A DNA stretch of 64,000 nucleotides from positions 2,357 to 66,356 of the forward strand of contig JBBTTO010000004.1 in the NCBI GenBank assembly GCA_038064195.1, written 5' to 3'. The notes under the pieces are model-generated. The model saw nothing but the letters and a program-made list of their open reading frames with translations, was not told where the DNA came from and did not search any database. Shown here in pieces: positions 1,743 to 33,877 of the stretch. Source of the stretch: Patescibacteria group bacterium. GTDB lineage: Bacteria; Patescibacteriota; Microgenomatia; Levybacterales; UBA12049. Within the stretch, counting starts at the first letter, position 1; each line of letters opens with the position of its first letter. Both the position numbers and the translations under genes were made by a program.

Positions 1743-2981
1743 TCATTGAAAAACCCGACTGAAAATTTCTGAATTACGATAGAGGCGCTGTAACGCTGCC
1801 TTATTTAGGCTTCTGAGGGTAAATCGTTTGCGACTCCGACGGGCTAGCGTCGCCGTATATACCGCCACCATATCCTCAGCAACTTTTTTTGGCTTGAAAT
1901 TCTCTGAAATGATCCGTTTGGAAGCCGCGCCAAATTTGTCGCGTACAGTAGCATTATCAAGAAGATAGAGGACCTTTTGAGCAAAAGCTGAAGCATTAAG
2001 AGGAACCTGATAACCATTCACATCTGTCTTAATAATATGCTTATATGCTCCGTCTTTTACTACCACAAAAGGCAGCCCTGACGAGGCAGCTTCAAGGATA
2101 ACAATCCCTTGCGTCTCAGTAAGAGAGGCAAAAACAAAGATCTCGGCATCCGCGTAGGCTAAAGGGATATTTGCCTGGTCTATTTTACCCGTGAAATGGA
2201 CTCTTTGTGAAAGACCGAGCTTGTCTGCGTAATTTTTGATTGAATTAGCTTCTTCTCCTCCTCCGACAACGACAAGGTGTACTAATTTGTCTTTTTGAGC
2301 AACAATTTGAAAGGCTTTGAGTAAAAAAAGAAAATTCTTCTCCTTGCCAAGCCTTCCTACACTGAGTAGTATCGGTGAATTCTTAGGGATCTTACACAAC
2401 TCATGAAGAAAACCTTTCTTTTCACTTTGAAATTTTTCAGGGTAAATAAAATTTGAGACGACCACCATAGGCTTTTTAATCCGGTAGGAGACCAGTTCTT
2501 TTTTCATTTTTTCTGAAGGAGTAACTACGGTATCTGAAATATTTCCCCAAATTCGTAAAGCAGTAGCAGCCATGCGGGGTGTTATGATTTTACCTTTAAA
2601 GACATAATGCATATATTCTGTGAGTTGTGTATGGAAGGTTAGTACAAAAGGGACTCCTTTCACCTTCGCGACCTGATAGCCCAGAAAAGAGAAAAATCCG
2701 TTTCCATGAGCATGGACAATATCAAAATCATGTTTTTGGATCTCCTTTACCAGTTGATGGGGGAGGGCGATCGGCATATGCACCTCAGGCTCACTTGAGA
2801 TTACCTTGAAAGCCTTGAGACGATAAACATCCTTTTCGGTATCCTGATAATTGTCAAATTTCGGTGCGAAAATATACACCGTATGACCAAGAGCGCGAAG
2901 TTCTTTGGTCAAATTGGCAATCGATACGGTAACGCCGTTGAGCATCGGGTAATAACTATCGGTGAAAATTGCTATTCTCAT
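1743..2981 (-). CDS. glycosyltransferase family 4 (GT-B)
   Basis: C-terminal ILEAASSGLPFVVVKDG (GT1/GT4 E-x7-E region) and N-terminal MRIAIFTDSYYP. Confidence 0.8.
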   Translation of the reverse strand: MRIAIFTDSYYPMLNGVTVSIANLTKELRALGHTVYIFAPKFDNYQDTEKDVYRLKAFKVISSEPEVHMPIALPHQLVKEIQKHDFDIVHAHGNGFFSFLGYQVAKVKGVPFVLTFHTQLTEYMHYVFKGKIITPRMAATALRIWGNISDTVVTPSEKMKKELVSYRIKKPMVVVSNFIYPEKFQSEKKGFLHELCKIPKNSPILLSVGRLGKEKNFLFLLKAFQIVAQKDKLVHLVVVGGGEEANSIKNYADKLGLSQRVHFTGKIDQANIPLAYADAEIFVFASLTETQGIVILEAASSGLPFVVVKDGAYKHIIKTDVNGYQVPLNASAFAQKVLYLLDNATVRDKFGAASKRIISENFKPKKVAEDMVAVYTATLARRSRKRFTLRSLNKAALQRLYRNSEIFSRVFQ

Positions 2982-3063
2982 CAGGGTATATTGAATTGTA
3001 GCAAATTACTGCTCAGATTCAAATTAATGAAGATTTTAGAGATTTAGAATCTAAAAAATTGAG

Positions 3064-30059: not shown

Positions 30060-30638
30060 ATGAGGAAGTTACTTCTGCTCACAACTTTCTTTAGTCTTAC
30101 TCCTGTGATCTTAGTTATCGCACTTGTCGGGCTACTGACACTTTTCCACCATAGTAAGACCTACTTAGCCCTTAAAAGCCCCTATCAGCATACAGTCGCT
30201 TTCGCAGCACTCCCTTCAGCCCAAAATAGTTTCAGCGATACCATCAAAAGTGCTGACGCACGCAGTGAAATCCTCACTCAATTCTTTGCCAAATACAATT
30301 CACCGCTTAAGCCTTATGCCTCTGAATTCGTCAAGAAAGCAGAGGAGTATGAGCTTGACTTCAGACTCCTGCCGGCTATAGCCATGCAAGAAACCAATCT
30401 TTGTCTTAAATCTCATGAGGACTCATATAATTGTTGGGGGTTTGGTGTGCATGGGGGAAAGTATCTCTACTTTGACAGTTATCCTCAGGCTATTGATACT
30501 ATCTCAAAGGCTCTAGCGCAGCGCTACCGTGACCGGCACGGCCTGGTAACACCCGCGGAAATCCAAAAGCTTTACAATCCGACTAATACCAATGCCTGGG
30601 CCTCAAGTGTGGATCACTTCATGAATTCACTGCAATAA
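30060..30638 (+). CDS. secreted glucosaminidase-like (GH73/FlgJ-type) peptidoglycan hydrolase
   Basis: N-terminal TM; LPAIAMQETNL region with catalytic-Glu context, YNCWGFG. Confidence 0.55.
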   Translation: MRKLLLLTTFFSLTPVILVIALVGLLTLFHHSKTYLALKSPYQHTVAFAALPSAQNSFSDTIKSADARSEILTQFFAKYNSPLKPYASEFVKKAEEYELDFRLLPAIAMQETNLCLKSHEDSYNCWGFGVHGGKYLYFDSYPQAIDTISKALAQRYRDRHGLVTPAEIQKLYNPTNTNAWASSVDHFMNSLQ

Positions 30639-30847: not shown

Positions 30848-30947
30848 GGAATAACAATCTATTCTTTATAGGTCGTCATTCGACTCAATTCACATGAGAA
30901 AAAAGGCTCAGCCAGTTCTTATGCGAATTAAGACGAAGGGAAAACTT

Positions 30948-31511
30948 ATGAAAAATAAAACTATACTTATTCCAATCATCGCAGGACTTCTCCTGACGAT
31001 TTTATCTCCCCAAAAAGCACAAGCTGACGACAAAATTGCTGCTTCTTCTGCTGCTTTTATTCAAACGGCTACCTTATCAGAGAGAACCGATAACCGTGCC
31101 CAGATCCTTAAAGATTACCTGAATCAATATAATTCTCCTTTGTCAGGATCCGCTCAAACCTTTATTAATGAGGCTGATAGATACAATCTGGACTGGAAAT
31201 TCGTTGCCGCTATTTCAGGACTTGAATCAAGCTATGGAAAGCACATCCCTCCTAACTCATATAACGGATGGGGATGGGGGATCTATGGTGACAATGTCAA
31301 ATACTTCACGTCCTGGAATGAGGCTATCGCGACTATCTCAAAAGGCCTTCGTGAACAATATATGGATAAATGGGGAGCTCAAGACGTCTACAGTATCGGT
31401 CATATCTATGCCGCCAGCCCTACTTGGGCAGAACGTGTAAGCGGTATCATGGCTAATATGGAAAAATTCCAGCTCAACTGGACTGATACCTCTCTTTCCC
31501 TTTCACTATAA
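30948..31511 (+). CDS. secreted glucosaminidase-like peptidoglycan hydrolase (paralog of 30060..30638)
   Basis: signal-peptide start MKNKTILIPIIAG with AAGGGAAAA RBS (ORF track starts at 30894); AAISGLESSYGK, YNGWGWG. Confidence 0.55.
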   Translation: MKNKTILIPIIAGLLLTILSPQKAQADDKIAASSAAFIQTATLSERTDNRAQILKDYLNQYNSPLSGSAQTFINEADRYNLDWKFVAAISGLESSYGKHIPPNSYNGWGWGIYGDNVKYFTSWNEAIATISKGLREQYMDKWGAQDVYSIGHIYAASPTWAERVSGIMANMEKFQLNWTDTSLSLSL

Positions 31512-31613
31512 TTACCTTATAATAGCTTCCACACCTCTTAACCCTCTCGGTAGGAGAGGGGGGACTACCTTTTGGTAGTGGATGAGGTATTACATTCGTA
31601 AACGTTTTGACGA

Positions 31614-31696
31614 GCCCAGGTGGTGAAATGGTAGACACGATAGGTTTAGGACCTATTGCTCGTAAGAGTATGGGGGTTCAAGTCCTCTCCTGGGCA
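31614..31696 (+). tRNA. tRNA-Leu (anticodon UAG)
   Basis: acceptor GCCCAGG/CCTGGGC, anticodon loop TTTAGGA, long variable arm. Confidence 0.85.
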
Positions 31697-31700
31697 CAAT

Positions 31701-31825
31701 TCATTGGTGGTGAAATGGAGCGGAGGCAGCAGGCCGAGCTCGCCTGCTTGACAGGCGCGGAATGACACGCTGGCTTTAGGAGCCAGTGCCTAAAAAGCAT
31801 GGGGGTTCGAGTCCCTTCATCCGCA
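31701..31825 (+). pseudogene. aberrant tRNA-Leu(UAG)-like element with a ~45-nt GC-rich hairpin insertion and no proper 5' acceptor strand
   Basis: 3' two-thirds (anticodon arm CTGGC-TTTAGGA-GCCAG, variable arm, T-arm, CATCCGC-A) is tRNA-Leu-like; D-loop interrupted by GCAGGC-CGAGCTC-GCCTGC hairpin; 5' TCATTGG cannot pair. Confidence 0.5.
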
Positions 31826-31897
31826 CTAGATAGGACGTTCTCTTCAAATGAATGAATAGCTTGATAGGTAGAGCCAATGTGGCATGTTGTAGAGGAT

Positions 31898-32398
31898 TTA
31901 TGTTGTAGATAGATTGCTCACGGATGATCTCCCCAGACGCTTTAGAGTCCTTTTTTGCGTATCATTAAATTGGTCTACAATAGTTCTGTTTAATGCTCCG
32001 TTAATATACCCATCAGAATTTCCGCCCAATTTTCGTCTTCTATTAGGCGTTGTATTTGCTGATCCATCAAGTTCTGCCTTAATATTTCTCCAAGCGTCAT
32101 CTTCATAATCTGATCCTGGCAGAAGATCCGGCGTATATAGAGTGACTGTAGTTATAGCTTGAGGCGATACTTTTCTATTCACGGATTCTGAGGGAGCATC
32201 ATGACCATTATTACCCAAGGTCGGGAGGATTACCCGGAGTTCCTTAATAATTTCATTCGCTCTGTTAATAGCTTGCTCACGATTCATCCAATGATTGTAT
32301 CCTATAATATTCAACCTGTCAAGAAGAAACATAGGAGTTACAAATAGAGAGAAAAAGAAAAAAATAAAATAACACTCTAAATCTTGACATATTAGCAT
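31898..32398 (-). CDS. hypothetical secreted/membrane-anchored protein
   Basis: 166 aa with an N-terminal hydrophobic segment. Confidence 0.4.
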   Translation of the reverse strand: MLICQDLECYFIFFFFSLFVTPMFLLDRLNIIGYNHWMNREQAINRANEIIKELRVILPTLGNNGHDAPSESVNRKVSPQAITTVTLYTPDLLPGSDYEDDAWRNIKAELDGSANTTPNRRRKLGGNSDGYINGALNRTIVDQFNDTQKRTLKRLGRSSVSNLSTT

Positions 32399-32435
32399 TT
32401 TATAGATATACTTTAGATATTAAATAGGTATATTT

Positions 32436-32696
32436 ATGAGTACACAACAAGTACAACTAAAGGTTAGTCTCTCCGATCAGCTTAACGACTTGCTACAGTC
32501 TAAGGCACAACGTCTTGGTATTCCTGTGACTCAATTTGTCAAACATCTTATTATCAAAGAAGTAGAGACTGAAGAATATCCTACTTTTCCCATGTCAAAG
32601 AGGACAGAGACGAAGGCAAGAGAAGCTTTACAAGAGTATGAGTTAGGCAAAGCAGTTGACACATCAGACTTCTTCAAAAAACTGAATGAGAGCTAA
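32436..32696 (+). CDS. RelB/DinJ-family antitoxin
   Basis: N-terminal RHH-like KVSLSDQLNDLLQSKAQRLGIPVTQFVKHLI; C-terminal DTSDFFKKL like DinJ. Confidence 0.6.
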   Translation: MSTQQVQLKVSLSDQLNDLLQSKAQRLGIPVTQFVKHLIIKEVETEEYPTFPMSKRTETKAREALQEYELGKAVDTSDFFKKLNES

Positions 32697-32958
32697 ACTT
32701 TCTCCTTTTATCCAGAAAGAAATTGCCCGGATCTATAAAAAGGACAAGAAATTAGCCACTAAAATAGAAAAACAGATACTTCTTCTTGAAACAAACCCAA
32801 AGCATCCTTCTCTCAGGCTACATAAACTTTCAGGTAGATTAAATAACTTATGGAGTATTTCTATCACAACGTCAATTTGAATGATATATCGTCTTATTGA
32901 TCAAGAAAATGCCTATTTTATTGACATAGGCACACATGACGAGGTCTATAATAAGTAG
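32686..32958 (+). pseudogene. RelE/YafQ-family toxin interrupted by an in-frame TGA
   Basis: ...HPSLRLHKLSGRLNNLWSISITTSI-TGA-MIYRLIDQENAYFIDIGTHDEVYNK is contiguous in one frame; 11-nt overlap with the antitoxin. Confidence 0.55.
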
Positions 32959-33049
32959 TTCTTTCTTCATTCCTCAAGGCTTGATATAGCTCCATCCTTC
33001 CGCACATTTTCTTCTCGACTCCTCGATCTAAGCGTGCTATAATAGCCTC

Positions 33050-33877
33050 ATGGCAACTACCATTAACAGACTCCCAGACGGCACTATTGAACTGAAAGTC
33101 ACTATCCCCGCAACCCTTATCAAAAAAACTCGCGAAGAGGTCATGGCTCAGGTGGCCAGTACCGCCAAAGTCGCCGGCTTCAGACCAGGTAAAGCTCCCA
33201 AAAAAGTCGTTGAAGAGACGGCTGATAAAGCAAAGGTACGAGAGGAAGTCCTCAGAGTACTTATCCCCCAGACCTACATCGAAGCAGTCCAGGAGCATAG
33301 CCTCAAACCCATAGTCAATCCTAAAATTCACGTCGATGAGCTTGAAGATGATAAAGACTGGTCTTTTAGCGCAACCACCTGTGAGATGCCTAAAGTAGAC
33401 TTAGGTAACTACAAAGATGCCGTAAAAGGTGTCACAGCCAAAAGTAAAATAGTCGTACCAGGCAAAGAACAGACCAAGCCTGACCTGGATACGATTGTCA
33501 AAGAATTAGTCGGTGCAGTCACTGTCACCATTCCGTCAATCCTTACAGACTATGAGGCAGATCGTCTTTTATCCCAGACTTTAGACGAAATCAAGAAATT
33601 AGGTCTCTCACTTGATCAATATCTGTCATCAACAGGCAAAACTCCCGAACAATTACGTGAAGAATATGTCGCTAAAGCGACCATGGATATGAAGCTCGAG
33701 TTTGCTCTGCAGCAAATTGCAGATAGCGAAAAAATAATTGTTGATCAAAAAGAAATCGAGGAAGCTGTCAGTCGCGCCAAAGATCCCGCTGAGAAAACCC
33801 ATTTAGAATCCAATAAATATCTCCTGGCTAATATTATAAGACAACAAAAAACGCTTGATTTCCTGCAAAATCTGTGA
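33050..33877 (+). CDS. tig: trigger factor, short form
   Basis: N-terminal ribosome-binding domain with the GFRPGKAPKKVVE signature; only 275 aa (no PPIase-sized middle domain). Confidence 0.7.
   Translation: MATTINRLPDGTIELKVTIPATLIKKTREEVMAQVASTAKVAGFRPGKAPKKVVEETADKAKVREEVLRVLIPQTYIEAVQEHSLKPIVNPKIHVDELEDDKDWSFSATTCEMPKVDLGNYKDAVKGVTAKSKIVVPGKEQTKPDLDTIVKELVGAVTVTIPSILTDYEADRLLSQTLDEIKKLGLSLDQYLSSTGKTPEQLREEYVAKATMDMKLEFALQQIADSEKIIVDQKEIEEAVSRAKDPAEKTHLESNKYLLANIIRQQKTLDFLQNL

Follow-up and report, generated by a model that had tools for sequence, protein, structure and literature searches.

A GC-rich palindromic repeat, apparently undescribed, in the D loop of a tRNA-Leu(UAG) pseudogene of a Patescibacteria bacterium

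Organization of the tRNA-Leu locus

The subject of this work is a tRNA-Leu locus in a stretch of 64,000 nucleotides, hereafter the window, from a Patescibacteria group bacterium (Levybacterales; assembly GCA_038064195.1, contig JBBTTO010000004.1, positions 2,357 to 66,356 of the forward strand). Here an intact tRNA-Leu(UAG) gene is followed, 3 nt downstream, by a second tRNA-Leu(UAG) unit whose D loop is interrupted by a GC-rich insert; this insert is a copy of a dispersed repeat that we call E. The limits of the insert are best set at 31717/31719 to 31760/62 (42-46 bp, ~44 nt). L-numbers are labels for retrieved loci and assemblies. The parts of the locus are as follows.

31614..31697, + strand: intact tRNA-Leu(UAG), acceptor type GCCCAGG (ARAGORN; Rfam tRNA 54.5 bits)
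31698..31705, + strand: junction sequence CAATTCAT, replacing the expected first ~5 nt of the second unit; tRNA similarity begins at 31706
31706..31718, + strand: tRNA-Leu 5' fragment GGTGGTGAAATGG, running from the last part of the acceptor strand through U8-G9 and the 5' D-stem strand into the D loop as far as G18-G19
31717..31760, + strand: copy of repeat E, situated in the D loop after G19 and before position 20; it consists of GGAGCGGA, hairpin 1 GGC-AGCAG-GCC (31725-35), GAGCTC (31736-41), hairpin 2 GCCTG-CTTGA-CAGGC (31742-56) and then GCGG
31729..31747, + strand: hairpin GCAGGC-CGAGCTC-GCCTGC of the preliminary description, an alternative pairing peculiar to this copy
31761..31825, + strand: 3' three-quarters of tRNA-Leu(UAG), acceptor type GCGGATG, from the remaining D arm through the discriminator A

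The upstream unit is the functional gene of the locus. It lies directly 3' of a conserved leader (...TTTGACGA), as in L001, L002 and L004, and its GCCCAGG acceptor type is also found in L003, L004 and L006. A TATAAT sequence (31517-22) is present upstream of both units, and no terminator was seen in the sequence between them. Transcription probably runs on from the intact tRNA into the second unit, which would form a trailer that is trimmed away; because RNase P requires an acceptor stem, the unit would not be matured.

The second unit is a pseudogene

In the second unit, the insert is directly followed by ACACG and then by an anticodon arm with stem CTGGC (31770-74)/GCCAG (31782-86), loop TTTAGGA and anticodon TAG (31777-79), a variable arm (31787-31800), a T arm GGGGG-TTCGAGT-CCCTT (31801-17) and the 3' acceptor strand CATCCGC (31818-24) with A31825. 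A preliminary description of this DNA had reported, at 31701-31825, an anticodon arm for Leu(UAG), a long variable arm, a T arm and a CATCCGC-A end; all of these are present, and its statement that the 5' end cannot pair with the 3' acceptor strand also holds, the heptamer TCATTGG (31701-07) matching the expected GCGGATG at only 2/7 positions. Similarity to tRNA starts within this heptamer, at 31706: 31706-31718 is 13/13 identical to 31619-31631 of the intact tRNA, and TGGTGAAATGG within it is identical to the tRNA of relative L008.

With default settings, with or without intron mode, ARAGORN calls only the upstream tRNA-Leu(tag) at 31614-31697; the intron-mode search, proposed in the preliminary description together with a comparison of orthologous loci, therefore shows that no canonical fold had been missed. 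At an 80% threshold ARAGORN gives only a badly mismatched 80-nt call, and the Rfam tRNA model (RF00005) scores 21.0 bits against a gathering score of 29, in a D-armless alignment of 31757-31825. Excising the insert in silico at five boundary choices led to no default ARAGORN call. A canonical tRNA-Leu(tag) was recovered only when E was excised and the 5' heptamer was also rewritten to GCGGATG, so that 31701-31825 is a tRNA-Leu(UAG) pseudogene carrying two lesions. It combines homology to a functional tRNA of a relative, disabling lesions and an intact copy alongside. The intron families of Rfam had no match in 31400-32000 at E<=10, for an insert of only ~44 nt; no bulge-helix-bulge (BHB) motif was seen by eye at the insert junctions, a formal search for which was not made; and the predicted fold of 31698-31828 is no better than that of shuffled controls (z=-1.5).

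The glucosaminidase-like protein encoded in the window retrieved 52 related loci, mostly titled Levybacteria or Patescibacteria, at up to 63% identity, and in 49 of them the order of a glucosaminidase-like gene followed by a single tRNA-Leu(tag) is kept. The 3' 62 nt of the pseudogene are 95.2% identical to the genuine tRNA-Leu(tag) at the orthologous locus of L008, whose acceptor is GCGGATG...CATCCGC; within the window, the pseudogene is most like tRNA-Leu(CAG) and tRNA-Leu(GAG), which have the same acceptor type. Because the acceptor types of the two units differ, the pseudogene is, on this comparison, a second tRNA-Leu(UAG) gene copy and not a mutated twin of its upstream neighbour. Its 5' end would be a recombination junction rather than the result of decay by point mutation, since 5/7 acceptor bases differ, against hardly any change in the next 11 nt and in the 62 nt of the 3' part. 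The suggestion of a decaying duplicate, made in the preliminary description, is therefore apt as regards a non-functional second copy beside an intact gene but not as regards decay, the damage consisting of two discrete lesions.

Repeat E and its family

That the insert is more widely distributed first became apparent from L034, where part of it lies upstream of tRNA-Gly, and from L032, where pieces of it lie upstream of tRNA-Leu. The consensus of E is GG-AGCGGA-[variable hairpin]-GAGCTC-GCCTG-CTTGA-CAGGCG-YGG, 38-61 nt including the leading GG. The second loop of some copies has grown into an additional small hairpin, frequently a GCGAAGC-type one. Searches used the pattern AGCGGA - 7-13 nt - GAGCTCGCCTG - loop - CAGGCG - YGG. 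Among the 52 related loci, E occurs in three (L025, L032 and L034, the last with two copies, one of them a variant downstream of tRNA-Leu), and a metagenome scan with the pattern gave 78 loci. The metagenome, the Levybacteria loci and the window together give 82 matches. These comprise 62 different element sequences and 63 different flank contexts, and in a few loci two copies lie no more than about a kilobase apart. In Levybacteria loci, which were chosen by synteny and not by motif, the density is ~5 copies in ~350 kb. A scan of viral contigs gave 0 matches, and the 64-kb window yielded no copy beyond the one in the pseudogene (nhmmer E=2.2e-8) with a 3-mismatch pattern, blastn-short or nhmmer.

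The predicted fold of E is a GAGC/GCTC helix around a GGA/GA internal loop and the variable hairpin, followed by a GCCTG/CAGGC hairpin. In the window copy, these family-wide pairings are GAGC/GCTC at 31718-21/31738-41, GGC/GCC at 31725-27/31733-35 and GCCTG/CAGGC at 31742-46/31752-56. The outer pair of hairpin 1 covaries (CG 21, AU 6, GC 3, GU 3), as does the next pair (GC 7, UA 4, CG 3); the observed score was reached in 0/500 shuffles, and slid controls were far lower. The other two helices are invariant and, being fixed by the search pattern, uninformative on covariation. The 6-bp hairpin that the preliminary description had placed in the D-loop insert is perfect as a pairing (GCAGGC 31729-34/GCCTGC 31742-47) but is not the conserved fold, its GCAGGC arm falling within hairpin 1, whose variable segment has a different sequence in the 61 other distinct copies. 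Two further properties were considered for E. A canonical kink-turn (k-turn) was rejected, the bulge being of 1 nt and not 3, and we make no claim of one; a promoter role for the TTGACA of hairpin 2 was set aside, as by eye there is no consistent, well-spaced -10 box and many copies are without TTGACA.

The flanks of E are strongly biased, with G at -2 in 61/63, G at -1 in 60/63 and a purine at +1 in 55/63 contexts, and no repeated flank indicative of a target duplication was found across the 63 contexts. E does not conform to a transposable element of the miniature inverted-repeat kind (MITE): its ends, GGAGCGGA... and ...CAGGCGYGG, are not inverted repeats, and no flank is duplicated. A GTAG or CGTC tag is absent from either end of the consensus (GGAGCGGA...GAGCTCGCCTGCTTGACAGGCGTGG). 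On the other hand, E is present in many unrelated contexts, and orthologous sites exist both with and without it, as is characteristic of a dispersed repeat. No Rfam family matched E in any context (the window and the related and metagenome loci, at gathering and E-value thresholds; only tRNAs matched), and the literature searched for the motif string, for tRNA introns or insertions in the candidate phyla radiation (CPR), and for CPR repetitive extragenic palindromic (REP) sequences, MITEs or REP-associated tyrosine transposases (RAYTs) contained no description of it. E thus appears to be a compact and undescribed repeat family.

Sites occupied by E in tRNA loci and protein genes

In tRNA loci, E follows G18-G19 of the D loop of tRNA fragments in the window, L032, L053, L128 and L130, follows G10 in L115, and lies within the T arm or loop of tRNA 3' remnants in L077, L107, L034, L063 and L108. 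Every E-bearing tRNA is a fragment near an intact tRNA, and the ~12 tRNA-associated copies include no complete tRNA gene containing E. E also fills the loop of a conserved hairpin in the 5' leader of tRNA genes in L034, L056 and L067, a loop that is empty in L008, L033, L036 and L027 (hairpin sites: L008 1520-1584; L033, L036 and L027 upstream of tRNA-Leu(TAG); L034 3060-2956 on the - strand; L056; L067). For example, TTGG|GAAA|ACCGTGAGG in L036 and TTGG|E|ACCGTGAGG in L067 form a clean empty and filled pair without duplication. The leader hairpin motif itself (...CCTTAAAGGGAAATCGTTGGGAAAAACCGCGAGGTTTGTCCCA...) was observed in the 5' leaders of Leu, Gly and Val tRNA genes of Levybacteria/CPR contigs and had no Rfam match.

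In protein genes, E lies within open reading frames (ORFs) on either strand with the frame kept. There are 15 read-through copies with at least 60 open codons on each side, and 23 copies in continuous ORFs when 40 codons are required; only 4 copies have non-continuous open frames of at least 60 codons on both sides, and these look like gene junctions. By our own reading rather than by a tool, the host proteins would include CarB-, glucose-6-phosphate dehydrogenase (G6PD)-, DinB-, FolD-, IF-2- and DnaX-like proteins and others. The predicted E-encoded peptides include GADERSEGARLLDRRG and STPVKQASS (CarB-, G6PD- and FolD-like genes of L113, L094 and L084). Filled and empty orthologues also exist, such as a 195-aa protein in L073 with E after ...GAAAAATGG and its 173-aa counterpart in L104. 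Because E is in frame in these ORFs, it is apparently not removed at the RNA level. Ribosomal bypassing and RNA splicing were considered and rejected for the copies in ORFs, no frame-breaking intragenic copy needing either.

A larger composite of ~90 nt, GGGGTG..GGAAGG-E-..GAACAGGACCCC, with pairing ends, embeds E in L097, L110, L116, L099, L068/L072, L065/L092, L078/L104, L071, L111 and L124. Long ORFs (DnaX-like and ligase-like) run through it, in frame, on the other strand. The composite was considered as a signal recognition particle (SRP; 4.5S) RNA with E as its apical domain and rejected, in view of the lack of any Rfam SRP match and of the long in-frame ORF on the opposite strand.

Displaced gene ends beside E

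A distinctive arrangement was found at the end of rpsJ (...AGVNIEIRM*) in five loci (L087 1130-1250; same site in L061, L060, L066 and L098). E lies antisense, one base past the stop codon, and after it the last ten codons are present a second time. Between the five loci, the in-use ends differ by 0-2 nt and the displaced copies by 2-11 nt, the changes in the latter being nearly all synonymous. Compared with each other, the two copies of one locus differ at 6-9/30 nt, and in 4/5 loci this changes no amino acid. Over E and the rpsJ end next to it, the loci are 93-97% identical; the figure is 81-86% for the gene body and at the level of noise beyond the displaced copy. By these measures, the displaced copies behave like native gene ends on which selection was acting until a short time ago, and E together with the in-use end like a shared unit. 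Target-site duplication was considered as the source of the doubled rpsJ ends and rejected, the copies within a locus being 6-9/30 nt apart and the in-use copies near-identical between loci. Homology-facilitated recombination of E-bearing DNA between related genomes could be the source of the doubled gene ends.

The same order of displaced fragment, E and in-use copy is seen at 5' ends, in a FolD-like gene of L086, another ORF of L075 and the start of a protein gene of L070, and at the 5' parts of tRNAs in L032, L053, L115/L121 and L128. At 5' ends, the displaced gene start, a short copy, lies directly against E on its 5' side, and 8-90 nt past E the complete gene begins. The two copies again differ mostly at synonymous sites, e.g. 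in MKIDG of the FolD-like gene.

Nature of E

The best explanation of E is that it is mobile DNA, selfish and non-autonomous, of CPR/Patescibacteria genomes, because it occurs in many unrelated contexts, at sites that are filled in some genomes and empty in others, in frame in both ORF orientations, and as GC-rich hairpins in an AT-rich genome. The element, as DNA or RNA, would fold into two adjacent hairpins and land directly 3' of GG, often in the loop of a pre-existing hairpin, and it would persist where it is harmless, that is, in redundant or fragmentary tRNA copies, at intergenic sites and as in-frame hydrophilic insertions in proteins. We consider it likely overall that the window holds a second tRNA-Leu(UAG) copy with a junction lesion at its 5' end and an insertion of such selfish, non-autonomous mobile DNA.

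Several points weigh against this interpretation. No transposase or partner enzyme has been identified for E, and terminal inverted repeats and target duplications are lacking; mobility is suggested by the distribution of E and by filled versus empty sites rather than by a known mechanism. The 64-kb window has a single copy, and for this particular genome a multi-copy status of E is a presumption. AGCGGA, GAGCTCGCCTG and CAGG were fixed in the search pattern, so the invariance of these segments and the tightness of the family are partly a matter of ascertainment. Finally, the GCGGA of E is complementary to the TCCGC at the 3' end of the pseudogene, and the minimum-free-energy (MFE) fold pairs the two, forming a possible tRNA-like acceptor helix.

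Alternative explanations

Another way to account for the locus is as an integration scar, in which the tRNA copy was duplicated or displaced by site-specific integration of ~1.2 kb and the GC-rich insert is an attachment region. Two features bear on this explanation.

31827..32998, no strand assigned: inserted DNA of ~1.2 kb, separating the pseudogene from tig
32999..33005, + strand: 7-nt repeat TCCGCAC, matching 31820-26 (the 3' end of the pseudogene with one added base)

In most relatives, as read by eye, tig starts ~10-60 nt after tRNA-Leu(TAG); in the window, it starts at 33050 (Trigger_N/C), and 1.35 kb, pseudogene included, separates it from the intact tRNA-Leu. The inserted DNA thus parts a tRNA locus and a gene that are adjacent in relatives. 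It contains a 166-aa ORF on the - strand (31898-32398) with no Pfam match and an 86-aa ORF (32436-32696) with a weak DUF6290 match, overlapped by a 64-aa ORF (32686-32880); the last two are possibly a toxin-antitoxin pair. The occurrence of TCCGCAC at both 31820-26 and 32999-33005 offers a weak indication that the second may be a degenerate right-hand att-type repeat of the insert, a 7-nt match in a region of ~200 nt having a chance of ~1% by our own estimate. Remnants of the 3' part of another tRNA-Leu allele lie up to ~130 nt past tRNA-Leu(TAG) in L030, L013, L024, L034, L042, L043, L046 and L037, all but the last of which we count in favour of an integration scar. Given the 1.2-kb insert, the repeated TCCGCAC and these remnants in many relatives, the tRNA-Leu locus is evidently a recurrent site of integration and recombination, and this history probably explains the presence of a second, dispensable tRNA copy for E to hit. 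As an account of the GC-rich insert, on the other hand, an integration scar is unlikely: no integrase or recombinase was found in the 1.2-kb segment (ORF list, Pfam), the remnant covers tRNA positions ~6-76, far beyond the usual att core, and E occurs alone in dozens of contexts unrelated to a tRNA or to the 1.2-kb insert. An integration scar may thus explain the second tRNA copy but not the insert in its D loop, and is compatible with an insertion of selfish DNA.

In an alternative that we regard as very unlikely, E is a functional RNA module of tRNA precursors, i.e. a processing or protein-binding signal with tandem G·A pairs and k-turn-like character, and the pseudogene is a structured trailer for the maturation or regulation of the upstream tRNA. 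The presence of E in tRNA 5' leaders or 3' trailers of the window, L025, L032, L034, L053, L056 and L067 is in keeping with such a role. By our own count, ~12 of ~63 contexts involve a tRNA, far above the share of tRNA genes in a genome. The GGA/GA internal loop and its C-GA...GA-G variants resemble G·A-rich protein-binding motifs, and at the rpsJ loci E is more conserved than the adjacent coding sequence. However, E is found in both orientations relative to its host gene, including antisense inside ORFs and after rpsJ, orthologous tRNA leaders with empty sites work without it, and none of the Rfam families matches. Moreover, mini-hairpins of the GCGAAGC or C(GAA)G kind are as typical of single-stranded DNA as of RNA.

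It is most improbable that the second unit is a functional non-canonical tRNA, from which the insert is removed like an intron or whose 5' acceptor strand comes from within the insert. The candidates for that strand are GCGGAGG (31720-26), which pairs with CATCCGC at 6/7 positions, and GCGGA-A-TG (31757-64), which pairs at 7/7 with one bulge; the product would be an oversized or D-armless tRNA-Leu(UAG). The D-armless Rfam alignment, the MFE pairing of GCGGA with UCCGC and the intact anticodon, variable and T arms agree with this possibility. The Rfam score below the gathering threshold and the lack of a default ARAGORN call do not, and AGCGGA is invariant in every copy of E, protein genes included, which makes its complementarity to the tRNA 3' end incidental. 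An intact tRNA-Leu(UAG) stands only 3 nt upstream, and complete tRNA genes containing E are lacking among the tRNA-associated copies. We know of no endonuclease for D-loop introns in bacteria. The intron-containing or processed tRNA envisaged in the preliminary description is thus not supported, on three counts: excision alone restores no tRNA, the other tRNA-linked copies of E lie in fragments, and E occurs in frame inside protein genes, which speaks against removal at the RNA level. Nothing was found in support of its further suggestion of a tRNA-derived regulatory RNA.

Finally, the chance of an assembly artefact joining reads of two tRNA-Leu alleles, to which the metagenomic source and a 5' fragment of the upstream tRNA type followed by a 3' part of another allele type might point, is negligible, since assemblies L131, L132 and L134 (which include a 1.08-Mb ENA contig from Hainich groundwater with ~64x coverage and two Logan runs) are 100% identical to the window over 215 nt from the start of the intact tRNA (0 mismatches).

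Possible modes of spread

As to how selfish DNA of this kind might move, we offer the tentative guess that E uses a single-stranded hairpin intermediate and a trans-acting HUH/Y1-type enzyme. Transposition of the IS200/IS605-RAYT type would fit, because of the 5' GG, the lack of target duplication, the preference for hairpin loops and the GCGAAGC-type mini-hairpins. In L056, L070 and L105, IS200/RAYT-like Y1 ORFs (YHVYNRG...LMPNH) were found at 1.3-1.6 kb from E, against 0 in 442 kb of control loci, a small count (3 vs 0), and in none of these three loci is the Y1 gene flanked by E.

The displaced gene ends raise another, rather doubtful idea, namely that E is the part by which a new kind of homing cassette can be recognised, one that would pass from one CPR genome to another along with a short replacement copy of the end of its target gene. 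The target gene would stay intact while its native end is pushed aside. The evidence for such a cassette is strongest at rpsJ. Such a cassette might spread by one-ended transfer (rolling-circle or nick-initiated) combined with homology-facilitated illegitimate recombination at the fixed 5' end of E, and the pseudogene of the window would be one product of this process at the tRNA-Leu locus.

Relation to known elements

In its behaviour, E comes closest to the Rickettsia palindromic elements (RPEs; Ogata et al. 2000/2002), and in size and form to palindromes of the REP type. In-frame insertion of RPEs in housekeeping genes is summarised in PMC10969869. Like E, RPEs are short palindromic repeats of a lineage with reduced genomes that encode no transposase and occur both in intergenic DNA and in frame in unrelated housekeeping proteins. 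Their inserts are translated as an extra peptide; for E, translation is predicted from the ORFs. RPEs are ~100-150 bp long, restricted to Rickettsia and unrelated in sequence, whereas E is 38-61 nt long, GC-rich in an AT-rich genome and found on either strand of ORFs. E is also strongly linked to tRNA loops and displaced gene ends, neither of which, to our knowledge, is a feature of RPEs. We do not claim membership of E in the RPE sequence family, as its hosts are Levybacteria/CPR and its length differs.

REP/REPIN-RAYT systems and IS200/IS605-derived palindromes share with E a size of 20-60 nt, GC-rich imperfect hairpins, the lack of a target-site duplication and a short fixed neighbour (GG in the case of E). 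According to PMC3733652, a GTAG or CGTC tag is found on most REPs. These are extragenic and mostly present in high copy number, whereas E is often intragenic, apparently of low copy number and without such a tag.

The GC clusters of yeast mitochondria and the derived 'byp' elements are 30-55-nt GC-rich palindromes in an AT-rich genome, and GC clusters, like E, are inserted in intergenic DNA, RNA genes and coding sequence. Unlike E, they are eukaryotic-organellar, and byps break the reading frame and are bypassed by the ribosome, whereas E keeps the frame in ORFs (15 copies vs at most 4 possible breaks).

Gene-end replacement is also known from integrative elements such as tRNA-targeting islands and phage 21/e14 in icd. 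The likeness to the E sites lies in an in-use end beside E and a displaced older copy opposite, with mostly synonymous differences (rpsJ, FolD, tRNA 5' parts); the difference is that the 'island' at E sites is only a repeat of ~50 nt with no recombinase. As for introns, the archaeal BHB introns at D-loop positions and the bacterial group I introns of tRNA-Leu are likewise intervening sequences inside a tRNA gene, as E is in the D loop of a tRNA-Leu here. Group I tRNA introns, however, lie in the anticodon loop and exceed 200 nt, unlike the ~44-nt E, and BHB introns need an archaeal/eukaryal endonuclease and an intact tRNA body, whereas the pseudogene has no acceptor stem and E also occurs in proteins. 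E corresponds to no known type of tRNA intron.

The pseudogene itself is ordinary and should be masked as such rather than counted as a non-canonical tRNA. The part worth following is the repeat family and its tie to tRNA loops, essential proteins and displaced gene ends. The family is widespread in groundwater CPR/Patescibacteria, where it occurs in tRNA loops and, in both orientations, in essential proteins. For annotation, E is a source of false tRNA-like calls, of gene fragments and, in conserved proteins, of insertions of 12-20 residues that are charged or rich in Ser/Ala. The family bears as well on the rearrangement of ultra-small genomes with few recognised mobile elements and on recombination between CPR lineages, for which it is a marker. 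If gene-end replacement were the mechanism of E itself, it would represent a new route by which selfish DNA enters essential genes without killing them.

Further observations at tRNA loci

The acceptor-stem type of tRNA-Leu(TAG) switches repeatedly among close relatives. In the loci of Gottesmanbacteria, a remnant of allele B comes after allele A and, conversely, one of allele A after allele B. A partial tRNA (L013 8069-8125; Rfam 31 bits, model positions 8-63) lies directly after tRNA-Val(GAC). In L022, an ARAGORN 'tmRNA' at 2811-3044 covers exactly the adjacent Val and Leu tRNA genes and is almost certainly a false positive. The window also encodes, a short way upstream of its tRNA-Leu locus, tandem paralogous secreted glucosaminidase-like proteins (30060-30638 and 30894-31511), the second of which alone has a weak Pfam Glucosaminidase match.

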